DNA from: an uncultured Candidatus Saccharibacteria bacterium
GTDB taxonomy: Bacteria; Patescibacteriota; UBA1384; DTJR01
Assembly (NCBI GenBank): GCA_964580065.1
Contig: CAZOJE010000002.1
Location: 66,978 to 130,977, forward strand
DNA length: 64,000 bases
Reading direction: 5' to 3'
Of the stretch, positions 10,838-20,590 are shown piece after piece (position 1 is the first letter of the stretch; each line of letters begins with the position of its first letter). The notes below the pieces were generated by a model. It made no database searches. It was not told where the DNA came from and saw only the letters and a list, made by a program, of their open reading frames with translations. Made by a program: the position numbers and the translations under genes.

Positions 10838-11707
10838 CTAAATATCAACCCTAACTAAATTGGCTTGAATAATGAGCCGGTTTAATGACGTACCAACCGG
10901 CCAACAAGTCATCAAGGTCAGTGTTTCGAGTTTTGTTTCGTCTAATACTTCTACGTTTTTTGCCTCGATAACACGTTTGTCGGACACGGAGTAAACGTAA
11001 CGGCGGCCGTTGGCGTAAATTTCAACCTGATCGCCGCGAATCAGCTTGTCTAAAAGGGCAAAAACCGAATTATAGTCGCTATGAATCCAACTATAATTTG
11101 AAGAATGGCCGACAATGAAAATATTTCCGCCGTTGCCGGGCAAAGAAGTATTTTCATAATGAACCACGCCGCTGGTAAGTTTACTTAAGATTTCGTTTTC
11201 CGGCACGTTCCAGCTGATTGGTACATCTACCGAAATTTTTCCAATGATTAAGCGATCTTGTTTTGTCGGGTCTTCATTGAACGACGGAATGGACTCCGGT
11301 AGCCCAAGCGAATCGGGCGTGCTAGTAGCGGTTGGTGTTGATGTGCGCGTCGGGCTATTCGTGCTAATTTTGCCTTCTGGCGCTTTTTGATTGAGGTATT
11401 CGCTGTAATAGAGCCAATAAAATTGCTTCTTGAAGGCCGTGTAATTCATTGCCACGTAAAAGCTAAAAGTGACTATGCCGACAACAGCCGAAAACATCAG
11501 CAGGCGGTCGAGACTGTCAGGCCCTTTTTTATTTTTTTTCTCTTTGCTTTTTTTCGTCAGCGCAGTTTTACTGATTTCCTTTTTGACCTTTTTTAGCATC
11601 AGCTCATCTTGATGCGGCCGAATTTTTTTTACTTTTAAATTCGGCTCAAATTTTGGCCCATCGTTGTCTTTAAATATCTTCTTGAGATCGTCTTCAGTAA
11701 TTTTCAT
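10838..11707 (-). CDS. Sortase-family transpeptidase with a lysine-rich cytoplasmic N-terminus and a TM anchor
   Basis: Catalytic His (NIFIVGHSS) and the TLMTCWP Cys motif. An S/T/P-rich linker follows the TM helix. Confidence 0.7.
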   Translation of the reverse strand: MKITEDDLKKIFKDNDGPKFEPNLKVKKIRPHQDELMLKKVKKEISKTALTKKSKEKKNKKGPDSLDRLLMFSAVVGIVTFSFYVAMNYTAFKKQFYWLYYSEYLNQKAPEGKISTNSPTRTSTPTATSTPDSLGLPESIPSFNEDPTKQDRLIIGKISVDVPISWNVPENEILSKLTSGVVHYENTSLPGNGGNIFIVGHSSNYSWIHSDYNSVFALLDKLIRGDQVEIYANGRRYVYSVSDKRVIEAKNVEVLDETKLETLTLMTCWPVGTSLNRLIIQANLVRVDI

Positions 11708-13047
11708 TTATGGAAGTTTTTGCTGATAAATATAAGTGTTTGCTTTTTGCTTGCCGAGTTAGAAATAGCATAATCGTTGGCCTGCTCCAAGATTTGCTTG
11801 AATTTTGGACTCGGCTCAAAGCCAAGCTTAATCAAATCGTCTCCGGTAATGAGATTTTTTTTGGGAAATTTTGACATTTCCCTTTGATTTTTTTTCGCCG
11901 CGACTAAGTCGGATTGCATTTTTTCAACCAACTCCGTATTAACTGGATAAGTACCTTCGCTGTCAGCGCGCACTAACTCAATTAACATCGGAAAACGTGG
12001 GTCGAGGACAAAATTCATTTTTTTGCTGGGGCGCATTTTATCTATATCGCCAATGCGCATGTGGTAATGAATCAGCCATTCGACTGTTTCGATCTCATAA
12101 TTGGGAAATTTCAATCGACGCAATATTTCTGTGGCCTTAGCAGCAGACTGTTCAGCGTGATTATAAAAAGTAATACGGCCATTTTCTTCGTTAAAAGTTT
12201 GCGGCTTGGCAATATCGTGCAAAAGTACTGCCCACGCAATAAAACTAGGCGTGTCGCGTTTAAGCGAACGCAAAGCCAGATAAACGTGCGTAAAAACATC
12301 ACCCTCGTGATGATATTCTAATGGTTGCGGCACACCTTTAAGCGCCTCAAGCTCGGGAATAACTTCCTCTAAAATTCCGCTTTGAGAAAGTTCAATTAAC
12401 CCTATGTGACGATTAAAAGAAGAAAAAATGAGATTTAATTCGTCTCTTATTCTCTCGGGTGCCACTTCTTTGATTAGTTTTGATTTTGATTTGATAATGT
12501 TAAAGGTTTCGCGTGAATACTGAAAACCCAAAATTACCTTAAACCTTACCGCCCGAATCAAACGCAGATGATCTTCCTCGATTCTTTCCGAAGCGTCGCC
12601 AACAAATCTGATTACCCCTTTTTTGAGATCTTCTTCGCCGCCAACATAATCAATAACTTTATTTTTCAGCGGATCAAAAAAAAGGGCGTTAATTGTTAGG
12701 TCGCGTCGCCGGCAATCTTCTTGAGCTGACGAAAATTCAACATGGCTGGGGCGCCTTTTGTCCTCGTAACCGCTTTCAATTCTGAAAGTGGCCACTTCAA
12801 AATTTTCCTTTTGTTCAATCACATTTATGACGCCAAAACTTTTGCCGATTGCCACGGTAGAGGAAAAAAGTCTTTCAATCTCTTCTGGCAAAGCCGAAGT
12901 GGCAATATCATAGTCCTTAGCAGTTCTCCCTAAGAGCATGTCACGAACGCAGCCACCCGCAAAATAAGCTTCGTGGCCATTTTTCACGAGTTTTTTGACT
13001 ATTTCTGTCGCAAGCTGTTTTTTAGTTTTTTTCATCGGCTTTTTCAA
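11704..13047 (-). CDS. cca: CCA tRNA nucleotidyltransferase (poly(A) polymerase family head plus HD domain)
   Basis: Nucleotidyltransferase motif GGCVRDMLLGRTAKDYDIAT and an HD domain (HDIAK). Confidence 0.85.
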   Translation of the reverse strand: MKKPMKKTKKQLATEIVKKLVKNGHEAYFAGGCVRDMLLGRTAKDYDIATSALPEEIERLFSSTVAIGKSFGVINVIEQKENFEVATFRIESGYEDKRRPSHVEFSSAQEDCRRRDLTINALFFDPLKNKVIDYVGGEEDLKKGVIRFVGDASERIEEDHLRLIRAVRFKVILGFQYSRETFNIIKSKSKLIKEVAPERIRDELNLIFSSFNRHIGLIELSQSGILEEVIPELEALKGVPQPLEYHHEGDVFTHVYLALRSLKRDTPSFIAWAVLLHDIAKPQTFNEENGRITFYNHAEQSAAKATEILRRLKFPNYEIETVEWLIHYHMRIGDIDKMRPSKKMNFVLDPRFPMLIELVRADSEGTYPVNTELVEKMQSDLVAAKKNQREMSKFPKKNLITGDDLIKLGFEPSPKFKQILEQANDYAISNSASKKQTLIFISKNFHK

Positions 13048-13621: not shown

Positions 13622-13837
13622 GCCCCTCCAGTTTCTATAATAAAGTTCTTTTTACGAAAACGTTTTTACCTAAAACGTTTCCGATTCCAGCTTTCTTATC
13701 TGATAAAATAGTATCAAATTGTCCTATTGGAAACAATGATACGACTTAGATACCGAAAAATCTTACCGAAATATTCTTCGTTAGATAGTTAAGAATCTTA
13801 CCAAAGTCTGTTAAACTGCCAAGATTATGTACGAAAA

Positions 13838-13858
13838 GGCCTCGCCAGAGGCGAGGCC
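13838..13858 (-). terminator. Perfect 9-bp hairpin GGCCTCGCC-AGA-GGCGAGGCC just downstream of the GC-rich ORF, with a short U run on the minus strand
   Basis: Seen in sequence. It sits 40 nt after the stop of ORF 13901-14581. Confidence 0.5.
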
Positions 13859-13900
13859 CGAACTACAAAGCGAAAGGGTTTATAAGTTAGAAGACAAGGG

Positions 13901-14581
13901 CTACGTGCGGGTATACACCCAGATCTTGTCGCCTTCGCAGAAGGCCTCTGGATCGCCGCAGAAGCCGTATAGACAGAGGCCATCGTCACCGTGTTCGACG
14001 CTGAAGACCCCGGAGGAGCAATGATCCGGGCAGGCGATAGGATCCATGTACATCAAACACTGTTCACCGAGAGGCTGTTGCCCTGGGTACTGCAATCGTA
14101 GCTGCGCGCCGGATTCGATCGGGAGCTTCTTTGCGCCGATCTTCTCAAGCGCTTCGAAGTTCTGCTTAACCTTGCAGCCGCAGGGATAGCCGAGTTCGGC
14201 GCTACTGGCCCTGTAGAGGTCTAGCGTGCCGAGCTCCGAGAGGAGTGTGAACTTCTCGCAACCCATGAGGTTGCCAGCCCAGTTGCCAATGTAGTAGCCC
14301 CTGCTCTGCAGGGCATGCTCCAAGGTAGGGACCGAAGCGAAATTGCCGACAGTAATCGTGGCAAACGGCGGGCGCTCGGGCAGCGGCATGTGCATCGCCT
14401 GCTCGGCAGCCAGTAGATTCCAGAGGTCGTGCATCCGACTGACTAACCAAGGGTAATCTTTGACCAGGGTGAGTTTTGCATCACAGCCCTGGTACTCCTT
14501 CGCAGCATCTTCGGCCATTTGGCCTATTTGCCGCGCCAGCCAATTCCTTTCGGTCACTTTGGAAGTACGCCGATCTGGCAC
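13901..14581 (-). CDS. Hypothetical Cys-rich protein (226 aa) encoded in GC-rich (about 56%) DNA; function unknown
   Basis: GTG start preceded by AAAGGGGAG 8 nt upstream. The C-terminus is Cys-rich (CPDHCSS...CLYGFCGDPEAFCEGD). Its composition is strongly atypical for this genome. Confidence 0.55.
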   Translation of the reverse strand: MPDRRTSKVTERNWLARQIGQMAEDAAKEYQGCDAKLTLVKDYPWLVSRMHDLWNLLAAEQAMHMPLPERPPFATITVGNFASVPTLEHALQSRGYYIGNWAGNLMGCEKFTLLSELGTLDLYRASSAELGYPCGCKVKQNFEALEKIGAKKLPIESGAQLRLQYPGQQPLGEQCLMYMDPIACPDHCSSGVFSVEHGDDGLCLYGFCGDPEAFCEGDKIWVYTRT

Positions 14582-14700
14582 CAGGTAGCTCCCCTTTCGT
14601 GTCCAACATGATATCTCGCTTCAAAGCGAGGTTCGCCCTTCGGGCTTAGCTATTTACCTGTAATTTCAGCTAAACAATTAAGCCCGAAGGATTATTGTTA
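14582..14700 (-). promoter_or_regulatory. Structured 5' leader of the GC-rich ORF
   Basis: Seen in sequence: a 12-bp perfect inverted repeat CCTTCGGGCTTA/TAAGCCCGAAGG enclosing about 30 nt, a GCCC-UUCG-GGGC tetraloop hairpin and a CTCGCT-TCAA-AGCGAG hairpin. Confidence 0.35.
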
Positions 14701-14954
14701 AGGTTCTATTCGAAGAGAAAAATATACATAAATACATTCAAAAAAACAAGGGTTCGGCTGGCATGGTGAATCCTCGTCAAAGCACATCATCTCGTTTCTA
14801 ATACCAAATCGTTCTTGTTCTGTGATAAGGTTTATCGTCCAGTGATTTTGCCTGACCCTTAAACCAAAATATTCCGTCAACTTTTACAGCGTTGGCTTGT
14901 AAAAACCTCTCCCTTAAAATTTTAGTGGCAAGCTCTATGGCCCACAGATCGTAT

Positions 14955-15317
14955 TTATTTTTCTAATTCCTCTTTCAGCAATGCAACAATTTGTTTTCTC
15001 ATAATCAGGTTTGGTCTTTCCGCTGAAATATCTGTAAATTTTATATTAAAGATTTTTTCCAATAACTCTTTTGTTCCGCTATCATGGGTAACAAAAAAGT
15101 TTTTGCAATCGGCAAGTTCAATTGTATTCTGAAAAACAAAATTTAAATTCATTGTTTGTTTAATCTTTTCAAGCGTTTGAGTAATTTCGCCACCCCTTTC
15201 TTCTATTAACTTCTTTGCGCCCATCATTTCAATTTGGGCAATACCAACTTTTTTGTCGCCCATAACAAACCATGCAAAATTGCCACTTACTTTTGCGACG
15301 CCTACTGTGCCTGGCAA
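14955..15317 (-). CDS. Hypothetical protein, possibly a 3' gene fragment. Its 5' end overlaps the IS30 remnant on the opposite strand
   Basis: ORF only; no recognisable motif. The real start may be the internal MMGAKK near 15227. Confidence 0.25.
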   Translation of the reverse strand: MPGTVGVAKVSGNFAWFVMGDKKVGIAQIEMMGAKKLIEERGGEITQTLEKIKQTMNLNFVFQNTIELADCKNFFVTHDSGTKELLEKIFNIKFTDISAERPNLIMRKQIVALLKEELEK

Positions 15318-15497
15318 AAAGGATCAATAAAAAACATTATTGGTCTAGTGAGACAATACTTGCCCAAAGGCAGTAACATCACTAATCTAACCAACGATGA
15401 CTTATACGTAATTCAAGAGCGTCTCAACAACCGACCAAGAAAAACCTTGAACTACCAAACACCAAATGAGATATTCAAACAAATAGCAACAAAGTGA
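15234..15497 (+). mobile_element. Remnant (C-terminal about 80 aa only) of an IS30-family DDE transposase
   Basis: DAYCAWQKGSIKNIIGLVRQYLPKGSNI...LNNRPRKTLNYQTPNEIF matches the IS30 transposase C-terminal signature (PYSPWQRG-NEN-NGLLRQYFPKG ... NNRPRK-LG-KTP-E-F). An in-frame stop lies at 15207, so there is no upstream DDE region. Confidence 0.6.
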
Positions 15498-15520: not shown

Positions 15521-16424
15521 CTATTTACAATACTTTCTTAATTCTCCGGCTATTTCATCCGCGTCAATTTTGCTGTAATCTTCTCCAATCCAAAGCTTTA
15601 GTGCTTCAACAGCCTGGAATATCATCATATAGAGACCGGAACATACAGTAGCCCCCGATTGTTTTGCGTTACTTAAAAATTTCGTTTCATAGGGGTTAAA
15701 TATCGCGTCAAAAAAATACTTATTTTTCAAAGAACCGAGTTTGTTATAAATTTTTTGAGCAACTATCTCGCCATCATTGTCAGGGTACATTCCCACAGGA
15801 GTAGTATTAATTATAAAATCGGCTTTTGATATGTATTTTATTAGATTATTATCATTTAATTTTGCGTAAATTATTTTTTTATCTTTACTTGAAATATCAT
15901 CTGATAATTTCTCAGCCTGCTCTAGATCTCTGTTTACAATTAGAATGTTTTTGCTTTTTTTATATATCTCATATACAACCGCTCTAGCCGCGCCGCCCGC
16001 TCCGATAACCAACACAAAATCTCGTGGTAAAATACCTCTTAACTTCAATTCCATCGCCCTCATTGCTCCGGCTGCATCGGTATTATATCCGATTTTTTTA
16101 CCCCCCCCTGTACACAATTGTGTTTAGCGCCCCAATTTTCTTAACGGTATCATCCAACTTATCGACAAGTTTAATCGCAGTTACCTTATAAGGCAAGGTT
16201 ATATTAATTCCGGAGAATCCTAATTCTCCGAGATCATCAATATATTTGGCTAATCTTTTTTCGTTTTTGGTGAGGATTTTGACATGAGCATAACCGTCTT
16301 TAATTCCATTGGTTAAAATTCCAAACAAATAAGGCGAGATACTATGTTCAACGGGATTTCCCAATAAAGCTGAATATTTCATATCTTTGTTAATTTTAAA
16401 TATCGATTGTTTAAATCTTTCCAC
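15521..16424 (-). pseudogene. aroE: Shikimate/quinate 5-dehydrogenase (AroE family) split by a frameshift in a poly-G/poly-T tract at about 16098-16117
   Basis: The upstream ORF (16098-16424) has the substrate domain (SISPYLFG...KIGALNTIV). The downstream ORF (15521-16117) has the NTD-Gly junction plus a Rossmann GAGGAARAV motif. The junction reads IGALNTIVYRGG|GKKIGYNTDAAG across the homopolymer. Confidence 0.6.
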
Positions 16425-16988: not shown

Positions 16989-18050
16989 TCACGGCCGTTC
17001 GGTTAAGTTTGCGATATGATCGGCGAGAGACTTTGAATCACCGGACACATAGCGCAGGTCTGCTTGACCAAGAACCGCCGCGATGATGCTTTTACGCATC
17101 TCGAACAGTCTCTTGGAATCAAGCGAGGGGATGTATCCCATCAGGTCGTGGCTATCATTGCCGAGCATTACGGTACACGTTGATCGGATATAGCGAGAGA
17201 AGTTCTCATTCAGATACAGCCTCGTAACCAGATTGTTGGCTGCATCGGAGTAAACTTCTCCTTGATTCTCGTCTACGTGGACCATAAAGGCCCGCACAAT
17301 TGGTCTATTAGTCTGCTGTACCTCAATTTCCAGGTCTTCTGGCTGGATCTTCGTCTTGTGTAACCATGGATCAACCGTCGACTTCGGAAAAAACGGTAGC
17401 AGTTGCGGCTGACTTCTTCTGATTGACTCGTAGCGCAGGAAGAAGAATTTGGTCCCCCCAAGAGCAACCAAATCTTCTCCGGCAAGTCCGATGACTGCCA
17501 GATCGTTAGCGATCAATCTCGCGCTATGTCGCAGGCAGAGCTCAAGAGCAAGGGTGGTTTTGCCGGCCCCTTCCTTCCCAAGCAGTAATACTGCTCTGCC
17601 GTTGATTTCAACGCAAGCGGCATGCGCTGTCAGTGATGATCTCTGTTGACGTTGCAACTCGACCAGGGGATAGCCGAGATACAAAACGGTCTCCCCATTC
17701 CGCATCTGGTTCCATGGAAAGTGCACGTCAACGCTTCGTTTGCCAAACTCCAGGAGCGCTTCAGTGCTGTTGCGATACACCACTCGGTACACAGATTCGG
17801 AAGGCGAAGGCGACGCCTGAAAATCAGGAACAAAGCAGCTGTATCCCGATTTGGCAAACAACGGATACAGATCGACGTCGCTTGTGAAGTTCAAGTTGAC
17901 TCCGCACGATTCAATACTGCACAGGTGTGGCGTTTTCCTCACCTCCCTATCTGACCAGTGGAGTTTCCAGTATGTCTCGCAGATAATCGGCGTCAAGGAC
18001 GCACTCTTCGACCAGTCTTTGCACCTCTTTCTTATCAACATCTCTGTCAA
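16989..18050 (-). CDS. HPr kinase/phosphorylase-like P-loop protein (HprK C-domain homolog) in GC-rich DNA
   Basis: AVLLLGKEGAGKTTLALELCLRHSARLIANDLAVI matches the HprK signature [34 protein letters not shown] (Walker A followed by ALEL-x-R-H-x-L-ADD). Confidence 0.5.
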   Translation of the reverse strand: MTEMLIRKRCKDWSKSASLTPIICETYWKLHWSDREVRKTPHLCSIESCGVNLNFTSDVDLYPLFAKSGYSCFVPDFQASPSPSESVYRVVYRNSTEALLEFGKRSVDVHFPWNQMRNGETVLYLGYPLVELQRQQRSSLTAHAACVEINGRAVLLLGKEGAGKTTLALELCLRHSARLIANDLAVIGLAGEDLVALGGTKFFFLRYESIRRSQPQLLPFFPKSTVDPWLHKTKIQPEDLEIEVQQTNRPIVRAFMVHVDENQGEVYSDAANNLVTRLYLNENFSRYIRSTCTVMLGNDSHDLMGYIPSLDSKRLFEMRKSIIAAVLGQADLRYVSGDSKSLADHIANLTERP

Positions 18051-18504
18051 GACTGACCGACAGCATCCCGGGAGGTATCAGCGTTTGGCTGTTCTTGGAC
18101 ATGGCCAATACGGTACATCTCGCGCCCATTCGCTTCCAGATTTCTTTGGCGAGCACCGTTGTTATATGCCCCAAGACACGCCCCGTGTGGTACATGGGGT
18201 TTTTGCCGTACGGTGCTTCCATTGAGTGGAGTCGGCAGACGGAGATAACACCGTTGTTGGTGTTGCCTCTTCCGACCAGTCCCTCCTCACCAAACTCGAT
18301 ACAGCTGCCGGTTCCTAGAAGGTATAGCCTACTTGCCGAGTTCACGCTGACGGTTGCCTCATATGGACGACAACCTATCGGCGGAGAGTTCTCTTTTAGC
18401 CGTGAATTTATTAAATACTGCCGATCTAAAAAAGTATCAAGTGAAGCAAAACAATATGGAATAGATATATTTTTAACTACCCATGCGGTTGGCGGAGGAT
18501 TCAA
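17947..18504 (-). CDS. Hypothetical protein upstream of and overlapping the HprK-like gene; the two may be one gene if a frameshift is present
   Basis: ORF with a plausible amino-acid composition, co-oriented with the HprK-like gene. Competing plus-strand ORF 18095-19054 has S/P/L-rich wrong-frame-like composition in the overlapping GC-rich part. Confidence 0.3.
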   Translation of the reverse strand: MNPPPTAWVVKNISIPYCFASLDTFLDRQYLINSRLKENSPPIGCRPYEATVSVNSASRLYLLGTGSCIEFGEEGLVGRGNTNNGVISVCRLHSMEAPYGKNPMYHTGRVLGHITTVLAKEIWKRMGARCTVLAMSKNSQTLIPPGMLSVSLDRDVDKKEVQRLVEECVLDADYLRDILETPLVR

Positions 18505-19159: not shown

Positions 19160-19432
19160 TCAAGGTCGTTCAGGTAGAATATTTCCTTCCAAGCCGTTTA
19201 AATCACTAGAATCCACCAAAACAATTTTTTCAAAAATGCTCGTATTATTAAGCTGTTTTGGATATTCAAATTCAAAACGATCAAGCATATATTTTGCCTC
19301 ATCGTGCGGTTGTCCAAAAATTCCCGCAATTGCTTTTTTACCAGTCTTTTCAAGAAATTCTGCATAAGAAATAACGCTGGCAACGCCGTCTAAATCAGGA
19401 CTAGCGTAACATGTAATTAAAAATGGTTTCAT
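19160..19432 (-). pseudogene. ppaC: N-terminal 90-aa fragment of family II (DHH, Mn-dependent) inorganic pyrophosphatase or a DHH phosphoesterase
   Basis: MKPFLITCYASPDLDGVASVISYAEFLEK...IVLVDSSD matches the PpaC N-terminus (KILVFGHQNPDTDAI-SAIAYA...VILVDHNE). A stop follows at 90 aa. No continuation appears in any frame downstream. Confidence 0.55.
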
Positions 19433-19440
19433 ATTTATGT

Positions 19441-19540
19441 TTGCACTAATTAGTGCGGCGCTATGTGTTACTTTTCATCTTACTTCTTCGTGATGCTTCG
19501 TGTGGTGCGGCGCTAGGCGCCGCTTTCACCACGCTTAGCG
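19441..19540. repeat. Double-hairpin palindromic repeat directly 3' of tRNA-Ala(CGC): CACCACGCTAAGCGTGGTG, GCGGCGCCTAGCGCCGC and a partial third unit
   Basis: A near-identical copy, in inverted orientation, lies after tRNA-Leu at 20462-20590. Confidence 0.6.
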
Positions 19541-19614
19541 TGGTGGACCCACCGAGAATCGAACTCGGAATTCAGCAATGCGAATGCCGTGTTATACCAT
19601 TTAACTATGGGCCC
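19541..19614 (-). tRNA. tRNA-Ala (anticodon CGC), CCA encoded
   Basis: Folded by hand: acceptor GGGCCCA/TGGGTCC with the G3:U70 Ala identity pair, anticodon stem CGGCA/TGCTG, loop TTCGCAT, T-arm CCGAG-TTCGATT-CTCGG. Confidence 0.8.
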
Positions 19615-20382: not shown

Positions 20383-20469
20383 GGGCAAGTGGCGGAACTG
20401 GTATACGCGTAGGTCTCAAAAACCTATGGCCGCAAGGCCTTGTGGGTTCGATTCCCACCTTGCCCACCA
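20383..20469 (+). tRNA. tRNA-Leu (anticodon CAA), long variable arm, CCA encoded
   Basis: Acceptor GGGCAAG/CTTGCCC, anticodon stem TAGGT/ACCTA with loop CTCAAAA, variable arm TGGCCGCAAGGCCT, T-arm GTGGG-TTCGATT-CCCAC. Confidence 0.8.
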
Positions 20470-20590
20470 CGCTTAGCGTGGTGAAAGCGGCGCTAAGCGC
20501 CGCACCACCCAAAGCATGATGCAAGTAACACCTAGCGCCGCACCACGACAGTGAGTGAAAGCGGCGCTAAGCGCCGCACCACACGAAGCA
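20462..20590. repeat. Two tandem copies of the tRNA-associated double-hairpin repeat (CACCACGCTTAGCGTGGTG, GCGGCGCTAAGCGCCGCACCAC, twice)
   Basis: Seen in sequence. The first hairpin overlaps the tRNA-Leu CCA end. Confidence 0.6.

Follow-up and report, generated by a model that had tools for sequence, protein, structure and literature searches.

A GC-rich gene in a Saccharibacteria genome is probably a stand-alone copy of a DGR target gene

Results

A GC-rich gene with a conserved set of expression signals

The window analysed here, a 64-kb stretch of a 140,252-bp contig from an uncultured Candidatus Saccharibacteria bacterium, carries on its minus strand a coding sequence of 226 aa (13901–14581) that was identified from the list of open reading frames, and that begins with GTG and ends with TAG. 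The encoded protein divides into an N-terminal three-helix region (residues ~1–64) and a conserved alpha/beta domain of ~155 aa (residues ~65–226). As the original prediction held, this gene is the most GC-rich 681-nt stretch of the window, at 58.0% relative to 40.3% for the whole, with the runner-up GC island (~17450–18380) reaching ~53%. The protein has ten cysteines, five of which fall within the last 43 residues, and the dense C-terminal spacing that had been pointed out is present as described (C184-x3-C188 ... C203-x4-C208-x6-C215). The gene's surroundings are a rearranged region containing gene fragments, with an HD gene on one side of the cassette and a DHHA2 fragment on the other; proteins ~90% identical to the HD and a sortase protein (P0348 and P0356) are encoded on another contig, of 20,560 bp.

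Upstream of the gene, alignment with the corresponding boxes of homologs suggests a promoter on the minus strand (14721–14749), with a -35 element TTGTTT at 14744–14749 and a -10 element TATATT at 14721–14726, separated by a 17-nt spacer. The boxes aligned upstream of homologs are TTGACA and TATAAT at locus L006, and TTGATT and TATATT at locus L001; a simple consensus promoter scan of the window did not call the 14721–14749 element. Between this putative promoter and the start codon lies a structured 5' leader. Its main feature is a 54-nt hairpin (14637–14690, minus strand), comprising a 12-bp outer stem (CCTTCGGGCTTA/TAAGCCCGAAGG) and an inner stem, which RNAalifold recovered from eight loci as 23 pairs, nine of them with compensatory double changes. 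The 134-nt leader holding this hairpin had a minimum free energy z score of -4.8, with none of 200 shuffled sequences being as stable. A covariance model of the hairpin built from the eight loci (R1) matched only upstream of family genes, including at locus L016, which was not in the training set, and found nothing elsewhere in the 64 kb, while comparison of the cassette and L001 with Rfam returned no family, only sub-threshold miRNA-like matches attributable to chance. Both the minimum free energy and centroid folds contain a second small leader hairpin, CTCGCT-TTGA-AGCGAG (14615–14630, minus strand), and analogous small hairpins of other sequence occupy the same place in the leaders of L001, L010 and L018.

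The translation start itself (14579–14597, minus strand) consists of the Shine-Dalgarno sequence AAAGGGGAG at 14589–14597 and the GTG at 14579–14581, aligned with AAGGAG..CCTGATG in homologs; the predicted Shine-Dalgarno sequence is therefore present, although its spacer is 7 nt rather than 8 nt. The GTG start is credible because homologs place an ATG at the aligned position.

Downstream of the stop codon, a pyrimidine-rich spacer (13860–13900, minus strand), with CTTG- and CTTT-rich blocks that are retained in a 3' UTR alignment of ten loci, leads to a GC-rich hairpin. Folding and a terminator scan place this terminator-like element at 13832–13859 of the minus strand, as GGGCCTCGCC-TCT-GGCGAGGCC followed on the coding strand by TTTTCG; read on the plus strand, 13838–13858 is GGCCTCGCC-AGA-GGCGAGGCC, a perfect 9-bp stem of G-C pairs only (ten pairs if an RNA G-U pair is included) closed by a 3-nt loop. 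Hence the hairpin that had been predicted exists, but lies 41 nt after the TAG stop, not 40 nt. It is identical in sequence to the hairpins following both variable repeats (VRs) of the diversity-generating retroelement (DGR) at L001, even though the proteins encoded there are merely 36–47% identical to that of the window. At L006, L007, L011, L012, L017 and L018 the stem has changed on both sides while pairing is kept, again with G-C pairs throughout; across the family, the loops are 3–4 nt of varied sequence, the hairpin lies 40–62 nt from the end of the VR, and a run of T follows.

These features exceed what would be expected by chance, because the open reading frame, promoter, leader and 3' hairpin are all conserved at the homologous loci of other genomes. 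The proposal of a complete expression signal set therefore stands: this is a real gene, and its promoter, Shine-Dalgarno sequence and terminator-like hairpin are all kept in homologs.

Conservation extends across a cassette and includes base composition

Nucleotide homology between the window and L001 runs from 14750 to 13830, defining a cassette of ~920 bp in which identity is 83% over the leader and 71% over the coding sequence. The parts that homologs have in common are the promoter, the structured leader, the open reading frame, the pyrimidine-rich spacer and the 3' hairpin. Retroposition of the whole cassette from an mRNA was considered and is unlikely, as the -35 box, with which inter-locus homology begins, would lie ahead of any transcript.

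The unusual base composition is shared too. Across eleven family loci, the gene has a GC content of 51–64%, a GC3 of 56–83% and an A3 of 7–16%, in host flanks that are 35–50% GC at nine loci, 55% at L018 and 60% at L008. The reverse transcriptase (RT) and Avd genes adjoining the family gene at L001 are host-like and AT-rich, at 38–40% GC. An adenine-specific depletion across the whole gene was also considered, with the A3/T3 ratio being 0.69 in the window gene, falling to 0.42–0.47 in L006, L007 and L017, and ranging over 0.75–1.17 in four host genes of the window; this effect is mainly one of general GC3 enrichment.

High GC is hence a stable trait of the family, maintained at 30–60% amino-acid identity, and gives no evidence of recent import. 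The original prediction of a recent acquisition from a higher-GC source had itself named, as the observation that would count against it, the same gene at similar GC in related small genomes, and this is what the family presents: a GC content of 51–64% retained in other small, mostly low-GC genomes at that level of divergence. To describe the locus as a mobile or foreign cassette is fair, in that the unit sits at differing genomic places, but the evidence does not support an Actinomyces-type host as the source of a recent import.

The protein belongs to a large uncurated family

Searches of Pfam, NCBIfam, PHROGs, PADLOC and PDB sequences with the window protein gave no match, and comparison of 60 family members and a family profile with curated libraries and PDB chains gave matches at noise level only. 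Relatives are nevertheless abundant in uncurated data: a word-indexed search of 5.8 billion proteins found ten homologs, a profile extended these to 60 (61 proteins in the family set), and when 1.84 billion cluster representatives were searched exhaustively with HMMER, 6,422 clusters matched at E<=1e-3, 1,455 of them at E<=1e-30. These matches mainly cover profile positions ~60–221, and in some proteins the domain is doubled. None of the 60 homologs has a Pfam domain, and the few that are named are called "hypothetical protein"; named homologs come mostly from MAGs of Patescibacteria, Berkelbacteria and Parcubacteria. Therefore the window gene carries a large, uncurated domain family found mostly in Patescibacteria, and the statement that it could not be assigned to any family holds for the curated families.

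Within this family, the window protein groups with a DGR-linked subfamily, being 47–61% identical to P0002 and P0007. Its identity is 47% to P0007, encoded at L001, 45–47% to the targets of L001 and L006, and 46% to the L011 target; in the comparison of hairpins, the L001 proteins spanned 36–47%. Its own cluster at 90% identity has one member. A distant Bradyrhizobium-type clade has a different C-terminus that is not VR-like in the 60-sequence alignment. No relative turned up when IMG/VR was scanned with the family alignment, the suggested check of phage collections thus being negative, and a metagenome scan recovered nothing beyond the L001 strain again.

Homologous loci encode DGRs that vary the end of the gene

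At L001 and L002, which lie on one ~170-kb metagenome contig, downstream of the gene for P0007 lie a 131-nt repeat, a bAvd gene (PF22296) on the opposite strand, an RVT_1 RT gene and a second, paralogous gene of 222 aa. Three copies of the 131-nt repeat are present, corresponding to VR1, an intergenic template repeat (TR) and VR2. Relative to the TR, VR1 has changed at 24 of 36 adenine positions and VR2 at 30 of 36, with none of the 93 non-adenine positions altered in either. The Patescibacteria MAG locus L006 has the same layout, with changes at 13 of 34 adenine positions and one of 95 others, and at L011 an Avd gene accompanies a TR with 20 mismatches, all 20 of which are at adenines. Hence Avd is found at all three DGR-linked loci and RT at two (L001 and L006), the L011 contig ending before the position at which the RT would lie. 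The cognate TR/VR pairs were also inspected for VR variation beyond TR adenines, which would indicate an alternative to TR templating, and this was not seen. These comparisons identify the last ~130 nt of the gene as the VR of a DGR at three independent homologous loci.

Within individual clusters at 90% identity, variation is almost confined to the same segment. P0027, P0196 and P0197 differ from one another at ~12–20 VR positions, with a single further difference elsewhere in the protein, and in the pair P0016 and P0199, leaving aside the C-terminal tails, ~12 positions of the VR are changed; judged from their sequences, these are natural VR alleles.

Adjacency to a DGR is not the rule within the family. 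Eight loci had adequate flanks, of which two (L001 and L006) are DGR-linked and six are stand-alone between housekeeping genes, in one case between succinyl-CoA-ligase-like genes. A functional link to type IV secretion, considered because L001 is in an ICE-like region, is not recurrent, with L006 and L016–L019 located among housekeeping genes.

The C-terminal cysteines lie within a VR-equivalent segment

Codon-by-codon alignment with the VR/TR pairs of L001 and L006 places the VR-equivalent segment of the window gene at codons 183–226 (13904–14035, minus strand), which contain the whole C-terminal cysteine pattern. Compared with these two heterologous TRs, the window VR differs at 22 of 36 TR adenines and at 22 of 93 other positions (OR 5.1, p=1.4e-4), and a third-base pyrimidine is retained at 15 of the 21 shared A-codon positions, as NNY codons descended from AAY should show. 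Relaxed or diversifying selection on a binding surface could also generate an enrichment at adenine positions of this kind.

C188, C208 and C215 correspond to the TR codons AAC, TAT and TAC of related DGRs, while C203 stands where nearly all close homologs have Trp. No cysteine column is invariant, or nearly so, in alignments of 11 and of 60 homologs, and at the same positions cluster-mates and alleles have Tyr, Gly or Asp in place of Cys. As TGY is one of the 16 possible NNY outcomes, the genetic code implies that Cys, along with Tyr, Gly, Ser and Asp, should be enriched in DGR VRs as a matter of course. The C-x3-C ... C-x4-C-x6-C pattern is hence best read as one allele of a hypervariable surface, because most of its cysteines sit at hypervariable NNY codons. 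The resemblance to a metal-binding or disulfide-rich domain that had been suggested does not survive this comparison, with none of the C-terminal cysteines conserved in 60 homologs, and C188, C208 and C215 located at hypervariable codons.

The VR-bearing domain may have a C-type lectin fold

AlphaFold2, supplied with the 60-sequence alignment, returned a model with a pLDDT of 94.4 and a pTM of 0.85, in which three N-terminal helices precede an alpha/beta domain ending in the VR strands. The best Foldseek matches to this model in the PDB were C-type lectin domains (Mincle, DCIR, BDCA2 and NKR-P1), although these were weak, at E=0.07–2 and TM ~0.42–0.47. DGR VRs are generally carried by C-type lectin folds, a rule with which these weak matches agree; they also parallel the case of AvpA. 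This archaeal DGR target, which has been structurally solved, has a mammalian C-type lectin domain as its closest structural neighbour (PMC5006420). The VR-bearing domain of the window protein may have such a fold.

The window contains the cassette and no other DGR component

Searching the 64-kb window by tblastn with the L001 RT and Avd proteins gave chance matches only (E>1), and blastn with TRs and VRs, together with a repeat search, found no second copy of 13901–14050 in these 64 kb of the 140-kb contig. The ~5 kb past the right end of the window, as reached through the flanking genes, likewise had no RT, Avd or TR.

Logan contigs from at least nine sample records match the window at 100% identity through the VR, and population-level VR heterogeneity was not found in them, whereas other family members do have VR alleles; this identity across samples may reflect one clonal strain. 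Position 13773, 60 nt past the hairpin, is polymorphic, and this SNP explains the breaks in Logan contigs at 13770–13781, which had been considered as signs of VR heterogeneity or of a cassette junction.

The window copy also has changes of a non-adenine type, which mutagenesis of adenines could not produce, in scaffold residues that are otherwise conserved. Trp203 has become Cys (TGG to TGT), the invariant end VWVFARK is IWVYTRT, one extra codon is present, and two positions that are normally NNY are GAA and AAG.

Discussion

The gene is probably a DGR target (variable-protein) gene standing alone, and more likely than not a frozen allele. The mechanism envisaged is one in which, in the complete systems, a TR just downstream of the gene would be transcribed, then reverse-transcribed by an RVT_1 RT acting with Avd. 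Adenines would be copied unfaithfully, and the resulting cDNA would replace the VR at the end of the gene (~130 nt), thereby randomising ~20 codons, mostly from AAY to NNY, on the surface of a domain that is probably C-type-lectin-like. The invariant 3' end of the VR, together with the downstream GC hairpin, would mark the acceptor site. The window copy keeps the whole ~920-bp cassette, and its C-terminal cysteines would be the residues that the current VR allele happens to have at hypervariable positions. We infer from these sequence patterns that the window VR was once written by a DGR, and that it is now inactive, with the allele frozen and the protein serving a binding function, as an ordinary cytoplasmic putative binding protein. 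The gene is probably still expressed, because it is intact and all of its signals are preserved.

Were a DGR outside the 64-kb window still rewriting this VR in trans, the gene would be an active remote target, which we regard as unlikely. Targets that are non-adjacent, or more than 100 kb away, have been documented (PMC5758913), and are missed by metagenome surveys (PMC8144416); moreover, the cassette is intact, its hairpin matches those of the active-looking L001 targets, and the lack of a nearby RT at six of the eight loci with adequate flanks would be sensible were trans targeting common. These considerations are opposed by the VR being identical in every Logan contig that covers it, by the single-member cluster, by assemblies that cross the VR unbroken, and by the non-adenine-type substitutions in the scaffold and at the 3' end of the window copy. 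None of the best 120 RT homologs is on a contig of 140,252 bp, although this is a weak test. Within the DGR interpretation, a frozen allele is favoured with modest confidence, as there is no RT, Avd or TR in the 64 kb and the allele is invariant across samples.

It is improbable that the lineage was never a DGR target, with the variability of its C-terminus representing ordinary divergence of a ligand-binding loop, albeit the Bradyrhizobium-type clade has a C-terminus that is not VR-like, most family loci have no adjacent DGR, and AvpA too has homologs outside DGRs (PMC5006420). Such a history is difficult to reconcile with a protein that lies within the DGR-linked subfamily and has a VR colinear with true VRs, with differences from the TRs that concentrate at TR adenines while third-base pyrimidines are kept, and with the 3' UTR, hairpin and 83%-identical leader that are common to the window and the DGR-linked L001 copies. 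A metal-binding or disulfide-rich cysteine domain gained recently from a donor of higher GC, for instance an actinobacterial host, would account for the cysteines of the last 43 residues, for a gene of 58% GC in a window of 40%, and for the location in a rearranged region. Yet no cysteine is conserved, Cys alternates with Tyr, Gly or Asp among alleles, named homologs are mostly from Patescibacteria, high GC recurs in the gene at nearly every host locus although most of these loci are low-GC, and the viral collection was negative, making this origin highly implausible.

The 3' hairpin can be read in more than one way. In BPP-1, homing is efficient only if the VR is directly followed by a hairpin or cruciform rich in GC (Guo 2011, PMC3240598), and other phage DGRs have stems of 7–10 bp with 4-nt GRNA loops, located 4–34 bp from the VR, the resemblance of which to terminators has been noted (PMC3240598). 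The window hairpin shares with these phage elements a GC-rich stem of 9–10 bp, a short loop, conservation of structure over sequence and a following T-run, but differs in having a 3-nt TCT loop, rather than GRNA, and a distance of 41 nt that exceeds 4–34 bp (PMC3240598). It may be a plain terminator only, which would explain the 3-nt loop, the 41-nt distance and the T-run equally well. A dual role in termination and DGR homing would be plausible. The safest statement is that the hairpin is an intrinsic-terminator-like element at the position of a DGR target hairpin.

This interpretation changes an orphan, Cys-rich, foreign-looking open reading frame into one allele of a hypervariable DGR-type binding protein. 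The domain family comprises thousands of sequence clusters for which there is no Pfam or NCBIfam model, making it invisible to routine annotation. Where NNY codons encode a C-terminal patch rich in Cys, Tyr, Gly, Asp and Ser, with an invariant end strand and then a GC hairpin after it, a DGR target is a better guess than a metal site. Because their leaders and trailers are conserved, the stand-alone cassettes also make it practicable to ask whether DGRs in reduced genomes work in trans or have left frozen relics behind.

A more speculative proposal, which we consider doubtful, is that the ~920-bp unit is a self-contained and horizontally moving DGR target cassette, the conserved non-coding ends of which are undescribed functional parts of DGRs. 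Were this the case, expression of the variable protein might be under the control of the leader RNA, and through the 3' module one DGR located elsewhere in the genome might serve many scattered cassettes in trans. Such an arrangement would also explain the solitary copies inside housekeeping operons of reduced genomes, and the greater conservation of the leader (83%) than of the coding sequence (71%).

DGR systems are unusually common in Patescibacteria, and the family resembles known systems in several respects. As in the variable proteins of C-type lectin fold, Mtd of the Bordetella phage BPP-1 and TvpA of Treponema, the VR is at the extreme C-terminus, with an invariant end strand and ~20 AAY-type codons, and the complete loci of the family share with those systems a TR just downstream, Avd, an RVT_1 RT and a GC hairpin after the VR. 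However, there is no sequence similarity to Mtd or TvpA, nor a Pfam match to FGE-sulfatase, DUF1566 or Mtd, and the VR motif of the family is GLWL...P..F....VWVF.RK, whereas that of FGE-type VRs is ...GFR. The family also differs from these examples in its ~220-aa protein having neither a signal peptide nor a phage context, and the window copy in being without RT, Avd and TR.

Remote DGR targets of the Treponema and Legionella type (Wu 2018, PMC5758913) are similar in that a target-family gene is found far from any RT, among housekeeping genes. Yet what makes a gene such a target is that its own genome has a TR from which it differs only at adenines (PMC5758913), and there is no such TR within the 64-kb window.

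AvpA and the DGR targets of CPR and DPANN organisms (Handa 2016, PMC5006420; "clade 2" of Roux 2021, PMC8144416) are alike in being small, apparently cytoplasmic proteins with no recognisable domains, encoded by hosts with ultra-small genomes. AvpA has a divergent C-type lectin fold nearest to mammalian CTLDs, which the window protein may share, and some of its homologs are likewise stand-alone, outside DGRs. It nevertheless belongs to another sequence family, with a PDB-chain profile search not returning AvpA, and its VR is internal, with the hairpin inside the coding sequence, whereas genes of the window family end in the VR and have a non-coding hairpin beyond it. DGR specialists would find the window gene ordinary, apart from the corrected reading of its cysteines and GC content; of continuing interest are the size of the unannotated family, the conserved structured leader, and the many cassettes that are solitary.

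A conserved leader RNA in a large protein family

The 226-aa GC-rich ORF (window 13901-14581, minus strand) belongs to a family that includes variable proteins targeted by diversity-generating retroelements (DGRs). The family comprised 6,422 clusters at 50% identity in an exhaustive search, and Pfam holds no model for it. In some of its proteins (P0200-P0205 and P0212), a domain of ~155 aa occurs twice in tandem, with both copies ending in a C-terminus resembling a variable repeat (VR).

The 5' leader of the ORF forms an extended hairpin of 54 nt (14637-14690, minus strand), accompanied by a small second hairpin (14615-14630), and both its sequence and its structure are kept 5' of homologs at at least eight loci. 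Compensatory changes affect nine of its 23 pairs. A covariance model of the hairpin found matches solely ahead of this gene family, and the hairpin itself had no match in Rfam. It is a candidate for a new cis-regulatory or mRNA-stabilising element.

Variation between metagenome samples was detected beside the cassette, the ~920-bp unit (13830-14750) that carries promoter, leader hairpin, ORF and 3' hairpin. A T/C SNP (minus-strand bases) segregates between samples at window position 13773, causing many contigs from the Logan metagenome collection to stop at 13769-13781. The ORF, unlike this position, is invariant across samples.

An apparently rearranged genomic neighbourhood

Immediately upstream of the cassette lies a C-terminal DHHA2 fragment of a DHH/DHHA2 phosphoesterase (14955-15317, minus strand), with an N-terminal DHH fragment ~3.8 kb away (19160-19432, minus strand). 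This gene appears to be split in two, the N-terminal match being weak (E=2e-4). Between the fragments are an HD_4 protein, a GC-rich island and a split aroE, in which shikimate dehydrogenase (15521-16424, minus strand) is divided into two overlapping ORFs, Shikimate_dh_N (16098-16424) and Shikimate_DH (15521-16117), through a frameshift or pseudogene formation. An 87-aa ORF on the plus strand (15234-15497), containing …LNNRPRKTLNYQTPNEIF…, had no match in Pfam; its sequence may resemble the C-terminal tail of IS30-family transposases.

The second GC-rich island (16989-18504; ~51-53% GC) encodes a 353-aa HprK-related P-loop protein, with sub-threshold matches to Hpr_kinase_C and HprK_rel_A/B. 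It overlaps what is probably the remnant of a foreign pseudogene, a piece of 185 aa that covers positions 222-377 of 395 in PF01941, the archaeal-type S-adenosylmethionine synthetase. The entire 13.8-19.4 kb region looks like a rearrangement hotspot. Palindromic repeats rich in GC, with the units GTGAAAGCGGCGCTAAGCGCCGCACCAC and CACCACGCTTAGCGTGGTG, are present in several copies in inverted orientation at 19493-19545 and 20460-20590. They flank the Sua5/YrdC gene on both sides and adjoin tRNA-Ala(CGC) on the minus strand (19541-19614) and tRNA-Leu(CAA) on the plus strand (20383-20469).

Stand-alone and DGR-linked relatives

In other genomes, stand-alone cassettes of the family were found within housekeeping gene pairs (L019 4696-7659 and L016 5180-7129), one separating an ATP-grasp_2/Citrate_bind gene from a CoA_binding/Ligase_CoA gene, and another lying between TsaE and a TsaD fragment. 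In L016, an assembly problem at the cassette shows as a stretch of N flanked on either side by a copy of the leader.

Other relatives are linked to DGRs. In a Patescibacteria MAG (L006), the DGR reverse transcriptase is split into two ORFs of 190 and 134 aa (11475-12487) by a frameshift or assembly error; despite this, 13 of 34 adenines, and one of 95 other positions, are changed in the VR relative to the template repeat. The locus L001 (1-20669) has a complete DGR with two targets, including the ORF homolog, and a GC-rich HisG gene (GC3 0.73) in an otherwise AT-rich context. Its DGR is set among a serine recombinase, a relaxase, a VirB4-like ATPase, T4SS pilins and PrgI, making the surrounding region ICE-like.
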